From NCBI GenBank assembly GCA_902620425.1, contig CACNHX010000003.1, positions 7,199 to 71,198 of the forward strand: a stretch of DNA of 64,000 nucleotides. The letters run 5' to 3'. Position 1 is the first letter of the stretch, and every line of letters starts with the position of its first letter. Made by a program: the position numbers and the translations under genes. The notes under the pieces were generated by a model that worked only from the letters and a program-made list of their open reading frames with translations, was not told where the DNA came from and searched no databases. The DNA is from an uncultured Alphaproteobacteria bacterium (GTDB taxonomy: Bacteria; Pseudomonadota; Alphaproteobacteria; HIMB59; GCA-002718135). Of this stretch, positions 2,890 through 35,104 are shown in pieces.

Positions 2890-3621
2890 ATGCCTTACTT
2901 TATTAATAAGAAAAAAGAAAGAATTCGCTATAAATCTATAAAGGGTAAGGGGCCTGGTATTATCTTTATCCATGGCCTTAACTCAGATATGAGTGGTAAA
3001 AAAGCTTTGTCTTTAGAAAGATTTGCCCGAAAAAATAAATTGCGGTTTATTTGTTTTGAATGCCGTGGTCATGGTAAATCTGATGGAAAATTTGAAGATT
3101 TTACAATTTCGGATTGGAAGAAAGACTTAATTGATATCATTGATAATATTGCAAAAGGACCGCAAATTCTGGTTGGTAGCAGTATGGGTGGATGGTTAAT
3201 GTTTTTAGCTGCCAAAGCAAGACCAAAAAGAATTGCTGGATTAATTGGCCTAGCGGCAGCACCTGATTATATCGATGGGTTTTACAAAAAACTCCCTTTA
3301 AAGAAAAAACAAGAGATGAATAAAAAAGGAATTATTAAATATTCCTCCTTCGGGTTTAGTTATCTTATAAAAAAGAAATACATTGTTGAAGGAAGAAAAA
3401 ATAAAATTTTAAATAAAGAATTCAAATGGAATAAGCCATTAATTTTAATACAAGGACTAAAAGATAATGTTGTCACTCCAGATGTTCCAGAAAAAATAGT
3501 AAAAAAAGTTAATGGTAATCAAATCCAAATAAAATTATTAAAAAATAGTGATCATAGATTATCCGATCCATTTGATTTAAAAATAATGAATGATTCTATT
3601 CAATCAATAATAAAAAACTAA
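2890..3621 (+). CDS. Alpha/beta hydrolase (ABHD10-like esterase)
   Basis: IFIHGLNSDM oxyanion region, nucleophile GSSMGG, Asp in QGLKDNVV, His in SDHRLS. Confidence 0.85.
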   Translation: MPYFINKKKERIRYKSIKGKGPGIIFIHGLNSDMSGKKALSLERFARKNKLRFICFECRGHGKSDGKFEDFTISDWKKDLIDIIDNIAKGPQILVGSSMGGWLMFLAAKARPKRIAGLIGLAAAPDYIDGFYKKLPLKKKQEMNKKGIIKYSSFGFSYLIKKKYIVEGRKNKILNKEFKWNKPLILIQGLKDNVVTPDVPEKIVKKVNGNQIQIKLLKNSDHRLSDPFDLKIMNDSIQSIIKN

Positions 3622-6600
3622 GCAGATTTTTCTTCTTGGATTAATACAGGTTGATCAAATTTATTGATCATCTCTTTTGGAACAATCTGCCAGAAGAGTA
3701 ATTTTTCATTTTCCCAATTTTCGAGTAAATTTTTTGCGTACATTGAATTTGTTTCCTTAATATGTTCTTCAATTTTTTGATGTAAAACTTTTTCCCAATA
3801 ATTTGTCATTTGTTGTTGATAGAAAATATCCTCAAGATTAATTCGAAGTGGTAGAGTGCCTTCTTTATCGTACACAAATGCCATACCTCCAGTCATTCCA
3901 GCTCCAAAATTATTTCCTACTTCACCGAGAATAACTGCACTTCCTCCAGTCATATATTCACATCCATTATCACCACATCCTTCAATAACAGCATGTGCGC
4001 CAGAGTTTCTAACAGCAAATCTATCACCGGCAGTTCCAGCTGCAAAAAGTTTACCACGCGTTGCTCCATATAGGACAGTATTCCCAATGATAACATTTTT
4101 GTTTGTTTTTAGTTGTGAAGATGAGCGTGGTTGAATAACAATCTTACCCCCTGATAATCCTTTTGCAACATAATCGTTAGCGTCACCAAAAACTTTAAGA
4201 GTAGTTCCTTGCACACTCCATGCTCCAAAAGATTGCCCAGCAGAGCCGTGAAAATTAACTGTAAAGAAATCCTCTGGAAGAGAGCTCATTCCTTTTGTTG
4301 TAGTAATTTCTGATGCAAGTCTTGTACCAATAGCTCTATCAGTATTTTTGATATTATAGTTTAGTTCAATTTTTTGATCTGTTTCAAAGAAAGACTTAGC
4401 ATCCTCTATGATTTTAATATCAAGGCTATCGCTAACTTTATTAATTGTATTTTTCTTTATATCAAATTCTCCAACTGATGAATCAATGGTTTGAATAATT
4501 GGATTTAAATCTAGATCATCAAGATCAGCACTTCCTCTACTGACTTGATATAAAAGATCAGATCTTCCAACTACTTCATCAAGAGAAGAAAAGCCTAGTG
4601 ATCCTAAAATTTCTCTTACTTCATCAGCAATAAAACTAAAAAGGTTAATTACTTTTTCTGGTGTACCGGTAAATTTTTCTCTAAGTTTTTCATCCTGAGA
4701 GCAAACTCCAACGGGGCAAGTATTTGAATGACATTGTCTAACCATTATACAGCCCATAGCAACTAAACTTGCTGTCCCAATTCCATATTCTTCTGCTCCA
4801 AGCATAGCCGCAATAACAATATCTTTTCCTGTTTTCAAACCTCCGTCAGTTCTAAGAACAACTTTATCCCTTAAGTTATTTAGAGATAGAACTTGATGTA
4901 CTTCACTTAATCCAAGTTCCCAAGGAAGTCCTGCGTACTTAATGCTTGTTTGTGGGCTTGCTCCAGTTCCACCATTGTGACCCGATATGAGTATCGTATC
5001 AGCTTTTGCTTTTGCAACACCAGCTGCGACTGTCCCAATCCCTGACTGAGCAACTAACTTAACGCATACTTTAGCTCTTGGATTAATTTGTTTCAAATCG
5101 TAAATAAGCTGAGCTAAATCTTCGATAGAATAAATATCATGATGAGGAGGAGGACTAATAAGTGTCACACCTTCAGTTGAATGTCTTAGTTTAGCAATTA
5201 ATTCTGTAACTTTTCCTCCTGGCAATTGTCCACCCTCACCAGGTTTTGCACCTTGTGCAACTTTAATTTCAATTTCTTCACAATTATTTAGATACTCCGC
5301 TGTTACACCAAATCGTCCACTTGCAATTTGTTTAATTTTTGATGATGCGTTATCTCCATTTGGTTTAGGTTTAAATCTAATCGGATCTTCACCACCTTCC
5401 CCTGAATCTGATTTAGCTCCTATCCTATTCATTGCTACAGAAAGAGTTTCGTGCGCTTCAGGACTTAGGGCTCCAAGTGATATTCCTGGTGCAACTAGCC
5501 TTTTTCTAATTTCTTGAGAAGGTTCTACTGTGTTAGAGTTACTATTGTCGTTATTCTTTTTGAAGTCTAAAAGATCACGTATATTTATAGGATCCATTTC
5601 ATCTATCATTGTAGAATATTTTTTAAATAAAGAATAATTATTAGAAGTTACTGCAGTTTGAAGCATGTGAATTGATCTTGCTTCAAAAGCATGTTTTTCG
5701 CCACCAAATCTGTAGCGATAGTTTCCTCCAATTGGTAACGTAATAATACTTTCTTCATAAGCCATGTCGTGAGCTAATCTAGATCTTCTTTCAATACCAC
5801 TAATTCCGATACCAGATATTTTAGAACTCATAGAAGGGAAATATTTGCTCATTAAATTTCTACTAAGACCAATTGCTTCAAAGTTACAACCACCTCGATA
5901 TGAATTAATCACTGATATTCCCATCTTACTCATAGTCTTGAGCAAACCATTATTTATAGAATTGATGAATCTCTCTACACATTCTTCATATGAGAGATTT
6001 TTAAATAATCCCTTTTTATGTCTTTCCGCTATAGCTTGTTGTGCCATATATGCATTCACACTTGTTGCTCCTACTCCGATAAGCACTGCAAAATATTGTA
6101 CATCTAAACATTCTGCAGATTGCACATTCAAGGAAATAAAAGTTCGAAGATTTTGTTTAATTAAATGATGATGAACAGAACTTGTAACTAATATCATAGG
6201 AAGAGCTATTCTTGTTTTAGACATTTCTTTGTCACTTAAAATTATATGAACATACCCCTCTCTAACAGCTTGTTCTGCTTCTAGGTTAATTCTTGCAATT
6301 TCTGTCTCAAAATTATTTTCAGTATTTGTTTTATCCATTGTAGTGTCAATGATCTTCACAGTATCTTTCATATATTTACGCATAGATTTGAATTGCTCAA
6401 TTGAAAGAACAGGGGAATTCAATTGTAAATGATCACATTGATCTTCATCTTCATCAAGAATATTACTTAAGTTTCCAATTCTAGTTCGAAGACTCATAAC
6501 AACTCTTTCTCTTAATGAATCAATTGGTGGGTTTGTAACTTGACTAAAATTTTGTCTAAAAAAGTGATGGAGTCCTCTATATTTATTTGAAAGTACAGCT

Positions 6601-8135
6601 AACGGAGTATCATCTCCCATCGATCCCGTTGCTTCTTTTTTTTCAGCAATCATTGGATGAAGTATTAATTCGATGTCTTCTACTGACCAAGCAAAGCATG
6701 CCATTCTCTTTCGTAGATCTCCAGAGTCTAAATCTCTAAATTCCTCATCAACAGATTGAACAAGTTTATCAATATACGTAATTTTTTTAGTCCAATCACC
6801 AAATGGTTTAGTTTCTGCCAAATACTTTTTTATCTCATGATCTTTAAAAAATTTTTTCTCTTTAAAATTGACTGCTATTAATTGACCTGGTCCTACCCTA
6901 CCTCTTTCTACTATTTCATTTTCTTTAATATCAACCATTCCAGTTTCAGAACCAGCAATAAGAAGATTTTTTGTCAGTGTATATCTTATAGGTCTAAGGC
7001 CATTTCTATCCATCCCAGCAATAGCCCAATCACCGTACGCACCACATATTGCTGCTGGACCATCCCATGGTTCCATAACTGCTCCACCATAAGCGTATAA
7101 ATCTTTTATTTTTTTTGGAAAATCTCTTCTATGGGACCAAGCTTCTGGAATTGTTATTATTTTAGCCATAGGTAAAGAGCGATTAGCTTTGACTAATAAC
7201 TCAATTGTTGAATCTAATGCAGCAGAGTCAGACGCTTTAGAATCAATTATGGGTTTTAAATCATCTACATTATTGCCAAAATTTTTATGTTCCATTCTTG
7301 GCTCATGAGCAGCCATCCAATTTTTATTACCTTTAAGTGTATTTATTTCACCATTATGCGCAATCACTCTAAAAGGCTGTGCTAAAGACCATGTAGGAAA
7401 TGTATTAGTTGAATAACGCTGGTGGTAAACTGCATATCTAGAGATAAAATTCTCATTTTGGATATCTGGATAAAAATTGGAAAGCTGTTCTGCTAAAAAC
7501 ATACCTTTATAAACAATAGACTGACAAGATAGTGAGCAAATATAAAAGTCTGAAATATTTTGATTTCTAATTTCTTTTTCTATTCTTTTTCTAATTATAT
7601 AAAGTTTATTATCAAATTGCTTTTCATCTTCTAGTTCTTCATTACAAATTAGTATTTGTTCTATTTCAGGCCTTGTTGCTTTTGCTTTATCACCAATAAT
7701 CGATGAATTAATTGGAACGTGTCTCCAACCATATATTTTCAAACCTTCTTTAATTATTTCAGATTCAACAATTGTACGAGCATTTTCTTGAGCGGCAAAA
7801 TCTGTACGTGGTAAAAAAATCATGCCAACCCCGAAAGGTAAATTATTAGGAGTGTGACCCGTTCTTTCTATTTGTTGAGTAAAAAAATTCTTTGGTATGG
7901 ATAACTGTATTCCTGCACCATCACCTGTTTTACCATCAGCATCAACTGCTCCACGGTGATACAAAACTCTTAAAGCTTGAACTCCTAACTCGACTATTTC
8001 TCTTGTCTCAGAGCCGTCCAAAGATGCTATTAGTCCAACACCACATGATGAATGTTCATCTTGTTCATTATAAACGTGATTTTCTTCTAGAAATTTTTTA
8101 TTCTTTTTATACTTTTCAATAAAGTGATTAGGCAT
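3618..8135 (-). CDS. gltB: Glutamate synthase large subunit
   Basis: 1505 aa; mature N-terminal CGVG, HNGEINT, KVAQGAKPGEGGQLPG, 3Fe-4S CIMVRQCHSNTCPVGVC, C-terminal beta-helix. Confidence 0.99.
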   Translation of the reverse strand: MPNHFIEKYKKNKKFLEENHVYNEQDEHSSCGVGLIASLDGSETREIVELGVQALRVLYHRGAVDADGKTGDGAGIQLSIPKNFFTQQIERTGHTPNNLPFGVGMIFLPRTDFAAQENARTIVESEIIKEGLKIYGWRHVPINSSIIGDKAKATRPEIEQILICNEELEDEKQFDNKLYIIRKRIEKEIRNQNISDFYICSLSCQSIVYKGMFLAEQLSNFYPDIQNENFISRYAVYHQRYSTNTFPTWSLAQPFRVIAHNGEINTLKGNKNWMAAHEPRMEHKNFGNNVDDLKPIIDSKASDSAALDSTIELLVKANRSLPMAKIITIPEAWSHRRDFPKKIKDLYAYGGAVMEPWDGPAAICGAYGDWAIAGMDRNGLRPIRYTLTKNLLIAGSETGMVDIKENEIVERGRVGPGQLIAVNFKEKKFFKDHEIKKYLAETKPFGDWTKKITYIDKLVQSVDEEFRDLDSGDLRKRMACFAWSVEDIELILHPMIAEKKEATGSMGDDTPLAVLSNKYRGLHHFFRQNFSQVTNPPIDSLRERVVMSLRTRIGNLSNILDEDEDQCDHLQLNSPVLSIEQFKSMRKYMKDTVKIIDTTMDKTNTENNFETEIARINLEAEQAVREGYVHIILSDKEMSKTRIALPMILVTSSVHHHLIKQNLRTFISLNVQSAECLDVQYFAVLIGVGATSVNAYMAQQAIAERHKKGLFKNLSYEECVERFINSINNGLLKTMSKMGISVINSYRGGCNFEAIGLSRNLMSKYFPSMSSKISGIGISGIERRSRLAHDMAYEESIITLPIGGNYRYRFGGEKHAFEARSIHMLQTAVTSNNYSLFKKYSTMIDEMDPINIRDLLDFKKNNDNSNSNTVEPSQEIRKRLVAPGISLGALSPEAHETLSVAMNRIGAKSDSGEGGEDPIRFKPKPNGDNASSKIKQIASGRFGVTAEYLNNCEEIEIKVAQGAKPGEGGQLPGGKVTELIAKLRHSTEGVTLISPPPHHDIYSIEDLAQLIYDLKQINPRAKVCVKLVAQSGIGTVAAGVAKAKADTILISGHNGGTGASPQTSIKYAGLPWELGLSEVHQVLSLNNLRDKVVLRTDGGLKTGKDIVIAAMLGAEEYGIGTASLVAMGCIMVRQCHSNTCPVGVCSQDEKLREKFTGTPEKVINLFSFIADEVREILGSLGFSSLDEVVGRSDLLYQVSRGSADLDDLDLNPIIQTIDSSVGEFDIKKNTINKVSDSLDIKIIEDAKSFFETDQKIELNYNIKNTDRAIGTRLASEITTTKGMSSLPEDFFTVNFHGSAGQSFGAWSVQGTTLKVFGDANDYVAKGLSGGKIVIQPRSSSQLKTNKNVIIGNTVLYGATRGKLFAAGTAGDRFAVRNSGAHAVIEGCGDNGCEYMTGGSAVILGEVGNNFGAGMTGGMAFVYDKEGTLPLRINLEDIFYQQQMTNYWEKVLHQKIEEHIKETNSMYAKNLLENWENEKLLFWQIVPKEMINKFDQPVLIQEEKSA

Positions 8136-31053: not shown

Positions 31054-31069
31054 GCACTACATATTGTGT
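31054..31069 (+). promoter_or_regulatory. NrdR box 2
   Basis: GCACTACATATTGTGT fits acaCwAtATaTwGtgt; 39 bp before the nrdA ATG. Confidence 0.8.
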
Positions 31070-31108: not shown

Positions 31109-33862
31109 ATGGCAGACAATCTACAGGTATCAGCAAAAATCTCAGAAGAAAAAAGTGTAAATATTTTAACATTAAGTGTCGTGCGTCGTGACGGAGCTAT
31201 CACCCCTTTCAAATCTGATAAAATTTCAAACGCTATAAAAAAAGCATTCTTAGCACAAACAAAAATTAGAAATGATAAAAATAAAGAAAAGGAACAACAA
31301 GATGGAATTCATAAAACTGTTGAAGCTTTAACGCATAAAGTTGTGTCAGCTCTAACAAGAAGGATTGCTGACGGTGATATGATTCACATTGAGGATATAC
31401 AAGATCAAGTGGAGTTAGCACTTATGAGGGATGAGCATCATAAAGTTGCTAGAGCGTATGTTTTGTATAGAGAACAGAGAGCGGCTTCAAGATATCACAC
31501 TAAAAAACTGAAAGAACAAGTTGGAGAAAAAGCTTCTTCAATGATGGTAACTAAAAGAGATGGAAGTAAAGAGCCAATTTCACTAGATAAAATAACCAAT
31601 AGAGTTTCTGTTCTATCTACTGGCTTAAACATTGATCCAATTGTCGTTGTTCAAAAAGCTGTTCCAGGCTTATATAGTGATATTAGTTCCGTTGAAATTG
31701 ATACTTATCTTGCTGAAACTGCTGCTGCTTTAACAGTTGAACATCCTGATTATTCTTATCTTGCAGCAAGAATAAAAGTAAACTCACTTCATAAAGAAAC
31801 TCCGGGTTTCATCATAGCAACAAAAAATTTATACGATGATGGATTGTTAAGAGAAGATTATTATAAAAAGGTCATGGAGAATGCAGACTTAATTGAGTCT
31901 GTAATTGACTATGACAAAGATTATACTTTTGATTATTTTGCTCTCACAACTCTAATAAGAGCATATTTATTAAAGTTCGATAATAAAACAATTGAAAGAC
32001 CTCAAGATCTTTGGATGAGAGTAACTTTAACAGTTACCGGTAATGAGTTTAATTTAGATAAAATAAAAGAAACTTATAAAAGTTTATCAACGGGTATGTA
32101 TACACATGCTACCCCAACATTGTTTAATAGTGGATTAAAAATGCAACAATTATCTTCATGCTTTTTAATAGGAATGGAAGATGACTCCATAGAAGGTATT
32201 TTTAATACTATAAAAGATTGTGCCCTAATTTCTAAAACAGCTGGTGGTATTGGCATGCACGCTCACAATATTAGAGGTAGTGGAAGTAGAATAAAATCAA
32301 CAAACGGGAAATCTAACGGCCTTATTCCATTTTTGAAAATATTTAATGAGACTGCTAAATCAGTTGATCAAGGCGGTGGTAAAAGAAAAGGTTCTTTTGC
32401 AGTTTACTTAGAACCTTGGCATGCTGACATTGAGAAATTTCTAGAACTTAGAAAAAATACAGGTGCCGAAGAATTTAGAGCAAGAGATTTGTTTTACGCT
32501 TTATGGATACCAGATTTATTCATGAAAAGAGTAGAAAATGATGAAGAGTGGACACTTATGAGTGAACATGAATGTCCAGGCCTCTCAGATGTTTATGGAG
32601 ACGAGTTTGAAAAACTTTACACAAAGTATGAAAATGAAATGAAGCATTTAGAAAAAATTAAAGCGAGAGATTTAATGTCTAAAATCATAGAAGCACAAAT
32701 AGAAACAGGACAACCTTATATGCTTTATAAAGACTCTATTAATAATAAGTCTAATCAAAAAAATATTGGTATCATTAAATCTTCAAACCTTTGTGCAGAG
32801 ATAGTTGAATATTCAGATAGGAATGAAACATCTGTATGTAATTTGGCTTCCATAGCTCTGCCAAAATTTGTAAAAAAATCAGATAAAAAATTAATATATG
32901 ACTATGACGCTCTTTACGAAACTGCAAAATTGGCTACAAAAAACTTAGATGAAGTAATTGATATTAATTTCTATCCAACTGATAAAACGGAAAGATCTAA
33001 TAATAAACATAGGCCAATAGGTTTAGGAATACAGGGACTTGCAGATGTCTACTTTAAGATGGGAATAGCCTATGAATCTGAGGAAGCTAAAGAAATAAAT
33101 AAATTAATTTTTGAGACAATTTATTTTGGAGCTTTAGAAGCTTCATGCGATTTAGCAAAAGAAAAAGGAGCCTACGAAACATTTAATAATTCACCCATCT
33201 CAGAGGGTAAGTTTCAATTTGATCTGTGGAATGTTAATCCTTCTTCAAAGTGGGATTGGGATTCACTTAGAGCTAAAATTAAAGAGCACGGTGTGAGAAA
33301 TTCTTTAACCACAGCTTGTATGCCAACTGCGTCAACAGGTATTATACTAGGTAATACTGAAACATTCCAAATACAAACGTCTAATATATATAAAAGACAA
33401 ACACTCTCTGGTGAGTTCCTACTCGTAAATAGATATTTAGTGAATGAACTTTCTCAAAGAGGATTATGGAATAAAGAAATGAGGGACAAAATAATTTTAG
33501 AAAATGGATCGGTAGAGAACATAAATGAAATTCCAACCGAACTTAAAGAAGTTTATAAAACAGTATGGGAAGTATCACAAAAAACTGTAATTGATATGTC
33601 AGCAGATAGAGCACCATTTATTGATCAAACCCAATCGATGAATCTTTGGCTTTCAACACCTACATTTGGAAAAGTTAATTCGATGCATATGTACGCTTGG
33701 AAAAAAGGTCTTAAAACAGGAATGTATTATTTAAGAAGTAGATCAGCAGTTGATGCTGTAAAAGTCACAGTTTCATCAGAAAAAGCAGCTAAAGATGCTT
33801 ATATAAATACTGCTATTAAACAAAACAATGAACCAGAAGATTGCGAAACTTGCAGTGCATAA
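31109..33862 (+). CDS. nrdA: Class I ribonucleotide reductase alpha subunit, eukaryote-like core, two N-terminal ATP cones
   Basis: QLSSCFL, SNLCAEI (Asn-Cys-Glu), VCNLASI, GMYYLRS, C-terminal CETCSA; cones begin VVRRDG and VTKRDG. Confidence 0.98.
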   Translation: MADNLQVSAKISEEKSVNILTLSVVRRDGAITPFKSDKISNAIKKAFLAQTKIRNDKNKEKEQQDGIHKTVEALTHKVVSALTRRIADGDMIHIEDIQDQVELALMRDEHHKVARAYVLYREQRAASRYHTKKLKEQVGEKASSMMVTKRDGSKEPISLDKITNRVSVLSTGLNIDPIVVVQKAVPGLYSDISSVEIDTYLAETAAALTVEHPDYSYLAARIKVNSLHKETPGFIIATKNLYDDGLLREDYYKKVMENADLIESVIDYDKDYTFDYFALTTLIRAYLLKFDNKTIERPQDLWMRVTLTVTGNEFNLDKIKETYKSLSTGMYTHATPTLFNSGLKMQQLSSCFLIGMEDDSIEGIFNTIKDCALISKTAGGIGMHAHNIRGSGSRIKSTNGKSNGLIPFLKIFNETAKSVDQGGGKRKGSFAVYLEPWHADIEKFLELRKNTGAEEFRARDLFYALWIPDLFMKRVENDEEWTLMSEHECPGLSDVYGDEFEKLYTKYENEMKHLEKIKARDLMSKIIEAQIETGQPYMLYKDSINNKSNQKNIGIIKSSNLCAEIVEYSDRNETSVCNLASIALPKFVKKSDKKLIYDYDALYETAKLATKNLDEVIDINFYPTDKTERSNNKHRPIGLGIQGLADVYFKMGIAYESEEAKEINKLIFETIYFGALEASCDLAKEKGAYETFNNSPISEGKFQFDLWNVNPSSKWDWDSLRAKIKEHGVRNSLTTACMPTASTGIILGNTETFQIQTSNIYKRQTLSGEFLLVNRYLVNELSQRGLWNKEMRDKIILENGSVENINEIPTELKEVYKTVWEVSQKTVIDMSADRAPFIDQTQSMNLWLSTPTFGKVNSMHMYAWKKGLKTGMYYLRSRSAVDAVKVTVSSEKAAKDAYINTAIKQNNEPEDCETCSA

Positions 33863-33875
33863 GAAGGAGTAAAGA

Positions 33876-34865
33876 ATGATATCAAAAGGCGTTAAATCAA
33901 TATTTCCAATAAAAAACCAAGAAATTTGGGATAGGTACAAGCAACATATTCAAGCCTTTTGGACAACCGAAGAAGTATCTTTGCAAGATGATTTAAGAGA
34001 TCTTGAAACTTTAAATGATGGTGAAAAACATTTTATTAAGCACGTACTTGCATATTTTGCTAACTCCGAAGCAATGATTAACGAAAACCTAGCAAGTAGG
34101 TTCTACAAAGAAATTTTAATTCCTGAAGCGAGATGTTTCATATCAATGCAAATGTTGAATGAATCAATTCATGCAGAGATGTATGGTCTTCAAATTGAGG
34201 CTTATGTAAAAGATGCAAAAGAAAAGGATATGCTTTTTGATGCAATACAAAACGTACCATGTATTAACCACAAAGCACAATGGGTATCAAAATGGCTTAA
34301 TGGTAGTCAAAACCTACTAACCAGACTAATAGGTTTTGGATTAGTTGAAGGTTTATTTTTTGCAGGCTCTTTCTGTGCTATTTATTATTTTAGAAAAAGA
34401 GGTTTACTGCCTGGTTTAGCCTTATCTAACGATTGGATTGCAAGAGATGAAGGAATGCACTTTAGCTTCTCATCGTTAATGTTCAGGACTTTAAGAGACA
34501 AGTTTAATAATAAAACATTAACAGATGCGGATATTAGTGATTTATCTTTGATTCCTTCTGACGTTCCTCAATCACAATTTGAGGAAATTGTTAGAGAAGC
34601 GGTAGCATTTGAAAAAGAATTTGTAAGAGATGCTTTACCTGTGGATTTAATCGGTATGAATGCTGATTTAATGTGTCAGTATATCGAGGCTGTTGCAGAC
34701 AGAATTGCAGATTTGTTTGAATTTGATAGAGTCTTTAAGACAGAAAATCCTTTTGATTTTATGAGAGCTTTAGATGTACAAAACGTTACAAACTTTTTTG
34801 AAAAAAGAGTATCTGAATATCAAAGACCTACAGATAGGGCTTTAAGTTTTGATGAAGCATTTTGA
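33876..34865 (+). CDS. nrdB: Class I ribonucleotide reductase beta subunit, eukaryote-like
   Basis: FWT.EEV.L, NESIHAEMY, VEGLFFAGSF, RDEGMH, NFFEKRVSEYQ; SD AAGGAG upstream. Confidence 0.98.
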   Translation: MISKGVKSIFPIKNQEIWDRYKQHIQAFWTTEEVSLQDDLRDLETLNDGEKHFIKHVLAYFANSEAMINENLASRFYKEILIPEARCFISMQMLNESIHAEMYGLQIEAYVKDAKEKDMLFDAIQNVPCINHKAQWVSKWLNGSQNLLTRLIGFGLVEGLFFAGSFCAIYYFRKRGLLPGLALSNDWIARDEGMHFSFSSLMFRTLRDKFNNKTLTDADISDLSLIPSDVPQSQFEEIVREAVAFEKEFVRDALPVDLIGMNADLMCQYIEAVADRIADLFEFDRVFKTENPFDFMRALDVQNVTNFFEKRVSEYQRPTDRALSFDEAF

Positions 34866-35104
34866 TGGAAGCAGAGATATATTCTAAAACTAATTGTGGA
34901 TACTGTGATAGAGCTAAACTACGGTTAGCGAAATATAATCCAAAAATTTATATGCTTGATACAGATTATACGAGAGACGATTTTTTTGAAAAGTTTCCAA
35001 ACGCAAAAACTTTTCCTCAAATAATTTTAAATGGTAAAAAAATTGGAGGGTATCATGAGCTTGAAAAATGGTTTGAAATGAATACCTTTGATGAGGAGTT
35101 CTAA
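34865..35104 (+). CDS. Dithiol glutaredoxin (CGYC) with acidic/aromatic C-terminal tail; ATG overlaps nrdB stop (TGATG)
   Basis: YSKTNCGYCDRAK, TFPQI, IGGY; ends NTFDEEF. Confidence 0.93.
   Translation: MEAEIYSKTNCGYCDRAKLRLAKYNPKIYMLDTDYTRDDFFEKFPNAKTFPQIILNGKKIGGYHELEKWFEMNTFDEEF

Follow-up and report, generated by a model that had tools for sequence, protein, structure and literature searches.

Organization of the nrdA-nrdB-grx locus

We analysed a 64,000-nucleotide (nt) stretch of contig CACNHX010000003.1 (assembly GCA_902620425.1), from an uncultured alphaproteobacterium with a low GC content (28%); this whole stretch is referred to as the window. The genes for the α (NrdA) and β (NrdB) subunits of a eukaryote-like class Ia ribonucleotide reductase (RNR) are followed here by grx, which encodes a small glutaredoxin (Grx) whose C-terminal tail resembles the docking tail of NrdB (Table 1). 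Direct reading of the sequence bears out the original prediction as to the two protein ends, LSFDEAF for NrdB and NTFDEEF for Grx, their coordinates and the TGATG coupling of the two genes. The 3′ end of nrdB (...ALSFDEAF) closes with the codons ttt gat gaa gca ttt tga, and grx, encoding MEAEIYSKTNCGYC...EMNTFDEEF, closes with ttt gat gag gag ttc taa; the claimed synonymous exchanges, gaa/gag and ttt/ttc, are confirmed. The A of the grx ATG, at 34865, is the last base of the nrdB TGA, and the same 1-nt overlap occurs in loci L081-L084. The two genes do not form a Grx::NrdB fusion, since the nrdB stop codon occupies 34863-34865 and grx starts at 34865 in a different frame.

Table 1 Features of the nrdA-nrdB-grx locus in the window.
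Feature	Position	Strand	Description
nrdA	31109..33862	+	917 amino acids (aa); class Ia RNR α subunit, eukaryote-like; two N-terminal ATP-cone stretches; Pfam Ribonuc_red_lgC 1e-214, ATP-cone x2, Ribonuc_red_lgN
NrdA β-tail pocket helices (residues 823-862)	33575..33694	+	mapped onto yeast Rnr1
NrdA C-terminal redox shuttle Cys912-Glu-Thr-Cys915	33842..33853	+	translation; protein ends EDCETCSA
nrdB	33876..34865	+	329 aa; class Ia RNR β subunit, eukaryote-like; Pfam Ribonuc_red_sm 7e-89
NrdB docking tail L-S-F-D-E-A-F (residues 323-329)	34842..34862	+	direct sequence read
TGATG, nrdB stop and grx start sharing one base	34863..34867	+	direct sequence read; translational coupling
grx	34865..35104	+	79-aa dithiol glutaredoxin; active site C11-G-Y-C14; Pfam Glutaredoxin
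Grx C-terminal tail N73-T-F-D-E-E-F79	35081..35101	+	disordered copy of the β-tail motif (AlphaFold, alignments)

Conservation of the glutaredoxin tail

A protein search with Grx returned 151 homologues, with identities of 65-95% among the 120 matches listed. All full-length homologues among these (n=111) end in Phe, one of them with Tyr in its place. Their length is constant at 79 aa and their tails follow the pattern N-x-[F/P/S]-[D/E/N]-[E/Q/K]-[D/E/N]-F, with Asn73 and Phe79 invariant in an alignment of 29 Grx sequences. We then compared the proteins with their genes at 91 loci, the window included, each of which (91/91) encodes a complete NrdB and a complete Grx. The terminal Phe codon of Grx is TTC in 63 and TTT in 28 of these loci and never encodes another residue, and that of NrdB is TTT in 82 and TTC in 9. 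Gene order was examined directly at 89 loci, all with grx downstream of nrdB, and nrdA lies upstream wherever the contig extends that far. The NrdB tail itself is close to invariant, reading ALSFD[ED][AT]F across 80 listed loci.

The 3′ ends of nrdB and grx in the window have only 8 nt in common, and the likeness of the two tails is therefore, judging from the sequences, maintained at the protein level in this lineage. Together with the retention of the tail in orthologues and the use of both Phe codons, this agrees with the claim that protein-level selection, not a fresh duplication, underlies the resemblance. The likeness also exceeds that of unrelated glutaredoxins: the NrdB/Grx tail pair of the window has a BLOSUM62 score of 20 over the last 7 aa, whereas 78 unrelated Grx tails average -5.8 (s.d. 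6.2) and reach at most 15. Residue-level co-variation was considered as a further measure within this clade and set aside as uninformative, because there is almost no variation in its NrdB tails or its NrdA pocket.

A second bacterial lineage with a tailed glutaredoxin

The same gene arrangement was found in a second bacterial lineage with a GC content of 39-44%, on contigs of up to 3 Mb whose flanking genes are unlike those of the window. NrdA and NrdB of this lineage are 67-69% and 77-82% identical to those of the window, and its Grx, of 84-86 aa, has a CPNC site. The NrdB tails read LSFNEDEDF, MKFEEDF, VFSDEIDF and IFSDEEDF, and the Grx tails LHFDNDDF, TDFQDDF, MCFDEDF and MNFDEDF. At locus L107, an N6/N4 DNA methyltransferase gene and a 231-aa gene without a Pfam match (5370-6990) separate nrdB from grx, and the Grx tail is retained. 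A metagenome scan for this lineage added one more low-GC CPNC member of the wider family of the window (L194, with L110), plus further negative controls.

Structure of the glutaredoxin

Grx scores 34.9 bits against the Pfam Glutaredoxin family (PF00462), above the gathering cut-off of 22.9. The AlphaFold model (mean predicted local distance difference test, pLDDT, 85.5) has the βαβαββα topology of the standard glutaredoxin fold, and the motifs of a thioredoxin-type fold can be read from the sequence: C11GYC14 where helix 1 begins, T49-F-P51 with the cis-Pro, and G61-G62. Grx has its best Foldseek matches in Grx3 and Grx1 of E. coli (probability 1.00 to both) and Grx1 of Francisella, and a profile search of the PDB groups it with the same proteins. 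The NCBIfam equivalog models place Grx in no named GrxA or GrxC orthologue group, with scores of 45 against a cut-off of 90 for GRX_bact and 35.8 against 84 for the GrxA family.

Helix α3 comprises residues 63-72 and is followed by coil (residues 73-79), and both the PDB profile search and the Foldseek alignments stop short of this tail. The original prediction that the protein extends past the normal Grx fold is thus true, yet overstated: the extension amounts to about 7 residues after α3, in a protein that at 79 aa is among the shortest glutaredoxins. The pLDDT falls below 50 over residues 76-79 and likewise over the disordered last five residues (81-85) of the second-lineage Grx, and in both lineages the tail is modelled as a flexible, exposed peptide. 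These values also bear on whether the tail might fold back on Grx itself as an autoregulatory lid, for instance by covering the active site or occupying the glutathione groove. Acidic C-terminal peptides may be able to imitate the carboxylates of glutathione; AlphaFold gives no confident intramolecular docking, however, and a lid leaves unexplained why the Grx tail matches the type of its cognate NrdB. We rate this as the least probable of the readings considered here.

The active site varies widely at residues 11-14 across the homologues (CGYC, CIFC, CVFC, CVYC, CPYC, CSFC, CAYC, CTYC, CPNC and CHNC). The classical CPYC is rare among the orthologues, which raises the question of whether the glutathione or the thioredoxin reductase system recycles Grx. 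One metagenome protein of 62 aa (P0141) is a chimera of Grx residues 1-43 and the NrdB C-terminus (...FFEK|RVSEYQRPTDRALSFDEAF), joined at an FFEK motif common to both; this micro-homology has probably given rise to it as an artefact of assembly or recombination.

The presumed receptor site on NrdA

The best PDB matches of NrdA are human RRM1 and yeast Rnr1 (E values of about 1e-277 to 1e-280). In yeast Rnr1, subsite 1 binds Phe1 and Leu3 of the tail heptapeptide and is formed by V342, E343, Q386, W389, L393, M721, G722, T725 and F729, and subsite 2 binds Asp6, Phe7 and the terminal carboxylate and is formed by S691, Q692, K693, I696, K723, S726, M727 and Y730 (PMC3483043). All eight subsite 2 residues are identical in NrdA (S823, Q824, K825, I828, K855, S858, M859 and Y862, HMMER alignment). 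The tail itself matches the eukaryotic type, in agreement with the original prediction of a likeness to eukaryotic β tails. Across 77 NrdA sequences of the window's clade subsite 2 is invariant except for K825R in two of them, and it is nearly invariant in the second lineage.

The Grx tail ends D-E-E-F followed by the stop codon, as suits a site for Asp6, Phe7 and the carboxylate, with the Phe conserved and position -2 being E, D or N in the family. At the other end of the heptapeptide, the Phe that the Grx of the window has at position 3 is replaced by Pro or Ser in many orthologues, Asn is invariant at position 1, and subsite 1 itself has diverged. The part of the pocket that is conserved would therefore be the part that reads the features common to the NrdB and Grx tails, namely the acidic residue or residues and the C-terminal Phe.

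The C-terminal CxxC of NrdA is retained in all related loci (CETC, CLTC, CVTC, CSTC and CLMC). The pocket helices end about 50 residues ahead of Cys912/Cys915 in the NrdA sequence, and a Grx bound at the pocket would, we infer, be positioned where the flexible redox tail of NrdA begins.

Phage loci and control operons

We compared the bacterial loci to viral ones. Among 80 viral loci with a eukaryote-like NrdB, one, on phage contig L185, has a separate grx gene about 0.9 kb upstream of nrdB, encoding a Grx of 93 aa (PF00462) with a CPNC site. This Grx and its NrdB have a common tail, FSVTDDF, which is quite unlike that of the window. Because 26 nt, stop codon included, are identical between the two genes, the L185 Grx tail was copied from nrdB at the DNA level and illustrates one way in which such tails can originate. 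No relatives of this phage Grx were found in the viral contigs, metagenome contigs and cultured phages searched. Between grx and nrdB of L185 lies a gene with a helix-turn-helix (HTH) and an HNH endonuclease (3279-3956), plausibly the driver of the copy. On a further viral contig (L396, IMGVR_UViG_3300020165_001593), a Grx::NrdB fusion gene is followed after about 690 nt, at 5063-5194, by a duplicate of about 100 nt of the nrdB 3′ end that includes the GFDEEF codons and the stop. This duplicate shows that nrdB 3′ ends undergo local copying.

The 26-nt identity with an endonuclease gene alongside it, and the stray fragment on L396, would both suit a tail resemblance without function, whether due to chance or left behind when the 3′ end of nrdB was transferred to a neighbouring gene by duplication or gene conversion. 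We consider this very improbable for the lineage of the window. Only the 8 nt are shared there, synonymous codons have turned over at constant length, and the terminal Phe and acidic run survive identities of 65-95% within the clade as well as the far greater divergence of the second lineage. The NrdB and Grx tails also evolve independently, which argues against ongoing gene conversion.

As negative controls we used five types of phage and metagenome nrdA-nrdB-grx operon with an E. coli-type NrdB (ending DFDL, LPSI or GF[KS]L), and their Grx tails are unrelated to the NrdB ends. The Tenacibaculum phages with a eukaryote-like NrdB have no Grx near nrdAB, and the cyanophage NrdC, which gives the best tblastn match in phage genomes (about 40% identity), has no β-like tail. 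The original interpretation as a whole is supported in part, its docking on α, coupling of β release to re-reduction and regulatory role being predictions. The comparison that it envisaged speaks for it: the Grx tail is conserved in orthologues, and those of the second lineage and of one phage contig resemble the tail of their own NrdB while Grx proteins beside other NrdB types do not, but residue-by-residue co-variation is weak.

Two further phage and metagenome cases were noted. A phage Grx ending KFDSEF (P0266) was rejected as a candidate: it occurs once, on a T4-like contig and apart from nrdB, its relatives lack the tail, and the ending may be due to chance. In one control operon (L195, metagenome contig OGVV01001804.1) the NrdB, of non-eukaryote type, ends ...TFKGFKL and the linked Grx ends ...SVKAFYA. 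This pair scores 8, a borderline level reached by 4/78 null tails, and may point to a second type of tail being mimicked.

Specificity of the tail motif

We screened viral contigs for open reading frames (ORFs) with C-terminal FDEDF or FDEEF followed by a stop; the figures cover the matches listed. Those ending FDEEF comprise at least 100 NrdB proteins, of which at least 52 are Grx::NrdB fusions, and at least 7 others, some with what we read as acidic tails of the T7-like helicase or single-stranded DNA-binding protein (SSB) type. Those ending FDEDF comprise at least about 77 NrdB proteins (at least about 22 of them fusions), at least about 32 terminase large subunits and a T4 gp15-like protein. 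No further free-standing Grx was found among these matches. Judged from these viral matches, Grx tethered to a β tail is very common in this NrdB type, and a free Grx with its own β tail would thus be a natural variant of a proven arrangement. The terminases end DDDWGFDEDF, and their terminal pentapeptide is the same as in many NrdB proteins. L212 (5026-6993) and about 30 similar viral loci encode such phage or prophage large subunits (Pfam TerL_ATPase, TerL_nuclease), with a conserved acidic end, ...LDLDDEIDDDWGFDEDF.

The tail could accordingly be read as a generic acidic, Phe-terminated motif for some other partner, such as a Grx-recycling enzyme, NrdB, another site on NrdA or a replication protein, with its likeness to NrdB arising by convergence. 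The unrelated carriers of the motif (terminases, the gp15-like protein and the T7-like helicase/SSB types) speak for this, as do the differences between the Grx tail and its cognate NrdB tail at positions -2 and -7. Yet in the loci examined a tailed Grx is seen only beside eukaryote-type nrdAB and never beside other NrdB types, and the L185 Grx tail is literally that of its NrdB. Furthermore, among 899 distinct long-ORF C-termini from all fetched loci, 11 have the form F-x-[DEN]-x-F and all 11 belong to NrdB. We therefore think a generic role unlikely.

A model for recruitment of the glutaredoxin to NrdA

We favour, as somewhat more probable than not, the reading that Grx is a dedicated RNR reductant, recruited to α via the β-tail pocket, which it would share dynamically with NrdB, and reducing Cys912/Cys915. 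Binding to α, the binding site and the role as reductant are what we infer from sequence features. In this model, Grx and NrdB would be produced from one message, and Grx combines an ordinary dithiol fold with a free, flexible seven-residue peptide carrying an acidic run and a C-terminal Phe carboxylate, as in the eukaryote-type β tail. The Asp/Glu-Phe-COO- end would enter subsite 2 of NrdA, the normal seat of the NrdB tail, and park Grx on α with about 50 residues of sequence between it and the Cys912/Cys915 shuttle, which the parked Grx would re-reduce after every turnover. Occupancy of the pocket would be transient and shared with the β tail.

Several observations qualify this model or weigh against it. 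Only 3/9 subsite 1 residues of NrdA are identical to those of yeast Rnr1, and W389 is replaced by Met. The Grx tail departs from that of NrdB at position -2 (E/D/N in Grx, A/T in NrdB) and at position -7 (an invariant Asn, against Leu in NrdB and Phe in eukaryotes), and many Grx orthologues have Pro instead of Phe at -5. The C-terminal half of the heptapeptide is, on these alignments, the sole part that is really shared. In the second lineage, the F-to-F spacing of the NrdB and Grx tails shows no strict co-variation, and the single L185 case is uninformative on long-term selection. Acidic Phe-terminated tails are a general docking device, the partners of the unrelated carriers presumably being others; the motif alone is thus not diagnostic of α as the partner, and context must carry the argument. 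In the modelled structure just about 7 residues separate the Grx globule from its anchor, which puts the steric fit on α in question. Finally, a tail competing with β could inhibit RNR rather than assist it.

This last point leads to a Grx that would occupy the β-tail pocket mainly as a competitive, possibly redox-sensitive brake on the association of α and β, and not as an electron donor. The conservation of the pocket in NrdA is compatible with such a brake, and competition by free β-tail heptapeptides inhibits eukaryotic RNR (PMC3483043). We nevertheless regard it as improbable. An inhibitor has no need of a redox site, and the CxxC is intact in every Grx orthologue though its middle residues vary; synthesis of Grx is coupled to that of NrdB; and fused Grx domains are proven reductants (PMC6187632).

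The recruitment model can be extended tentatively to a reductant and a radical-delivering subunit that time-share one pocket on α. Turnover would alternate between the β tail, for radical transfer, and the Grx tail, for re-reduction of the C-terminal cysteines; the mimicry would set the rhythm of the cycle and arise repeatedly as redoxin genes acquire copies of the 3′ end of nrdB. We regard this extension as possible, if doubtful.

Comparison with known RNR reductants and docking peptides

The nearest parallel to the proposed arrangement is provided by the Grx::NrdB fusion proteins of Facklamia ignava, Francisella and many viruses, in which the fused Grx is an efficient RNR reductant (PMC6187632). 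As in these fusions, the Grx of the window would be dedicated to a class I RNR and held near α with a β C-terminal tail as its anchor. It differs in being a separate polypeptide, encoded downstream of nrdB, which carries its own copy of the tail and has no covalent link to NrdB.

Grx also resembles the NrdH-redoxin of class Ib nrdHIEF operons, the specific reductant of its enzyme, in being a small Grx-like redoxin encoded in an RNR operon. NrdH is recognized by a C[VM]QC site, a WSGFRP[DE] motif and an association with class Ib nrdEF. The Grx of the window instead has CGYC, lacks WSGFRP and neighbours the nrdA and nrdB of a eukaryote-like class Ia enzyme, and NrdH is not known to have a β-like tail. 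The NrdC of T4-type phages and cyanophages, which serves as the phage RNR reductant, is likewise a small Grx-type protein, with about 40% identity to Grx. Unlike Grx, it has no acidic Phe-terminated tail and is not adjacent to nrdB.

The peptide AcFTLDADF ("P7") and its derivatives are synthetic competitive inhibitors and define the minimal ligand of the α P-site, in which subsite 2 is specific for the final Phe (PMC3483043). Like these heptapeptides, the Grx tail is short and acidic and ends in a Phe carboxylate; unlike them, it is the natural C-terminus of a redox enzyme and has Asn rather than Phe at position 1. Acidic C-terminal tails ending in Phe are also known from SSB and from T7 gp2.5 and gp4. 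What these proteins and the terminases have in common with Grx is a disordered, acidic C-terminus capped by an aromatic residue, a docking motif that is portable between proteins; their partners and pockets differ.

We found no description of a free redoxin with a copy of the β tail in open-access papers and bioRxiv, where Grx fusions, NrdH and peptide inhibitors are described. RNR-dedicated redoxins are already known, and what would be new here is the means of recruitment. It is poorly defined how thioredoxins and glutaredoxins locate the flexible cysteines at the C-terminus of class I RNR; the solutions known so far are an NrdH encoded in the operon and a covalently fused Grx. A free Grx with a β docking peptide would, if the model holds, be a third solution and a natural case of short-motif mimicry in bacteria. 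Its seven residues and one Phe would offer a simple handle on whether reductant access and β binding are coordinated at α, at the pocket to which peptide inhibitors of the human enzyme are directed. Very abundant marine SAR11-like bacteria are among the carriers, and the mechanism, if true, would therefore run in a large share of ocean cells.

Additional features of the locus

No tRNA genes and no Rfam families above the gathering score were found in the whole window (1-64000), and a terminator scan of the window gave nothing relevant. In the metagenome contig L084, nrdB (1222-2210) is broken into ORFs of 80 and 241 aa by a frameshift or a sequencing error (3x long-read data). About 40 nt upstream of the nrdA start, GCACTACATATTGTGT at 31054-31069 differs at 2 positions from the consensus of an NrdR-box-like palindrome; 2.4 matches at ≤3 mismatches are expected by chance across the window, and the site is suggestive through its position only. 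Pfam finds the two ATP-cone stretches of NrdA within its N-terminus (31109-31530). The eukaryotic R1 matches to NrdA begin no earlier than residue 139-145, and the Pseudomonas aeruginosa NrdA (PDB 5im3) aligns over the full length, extra cone included.

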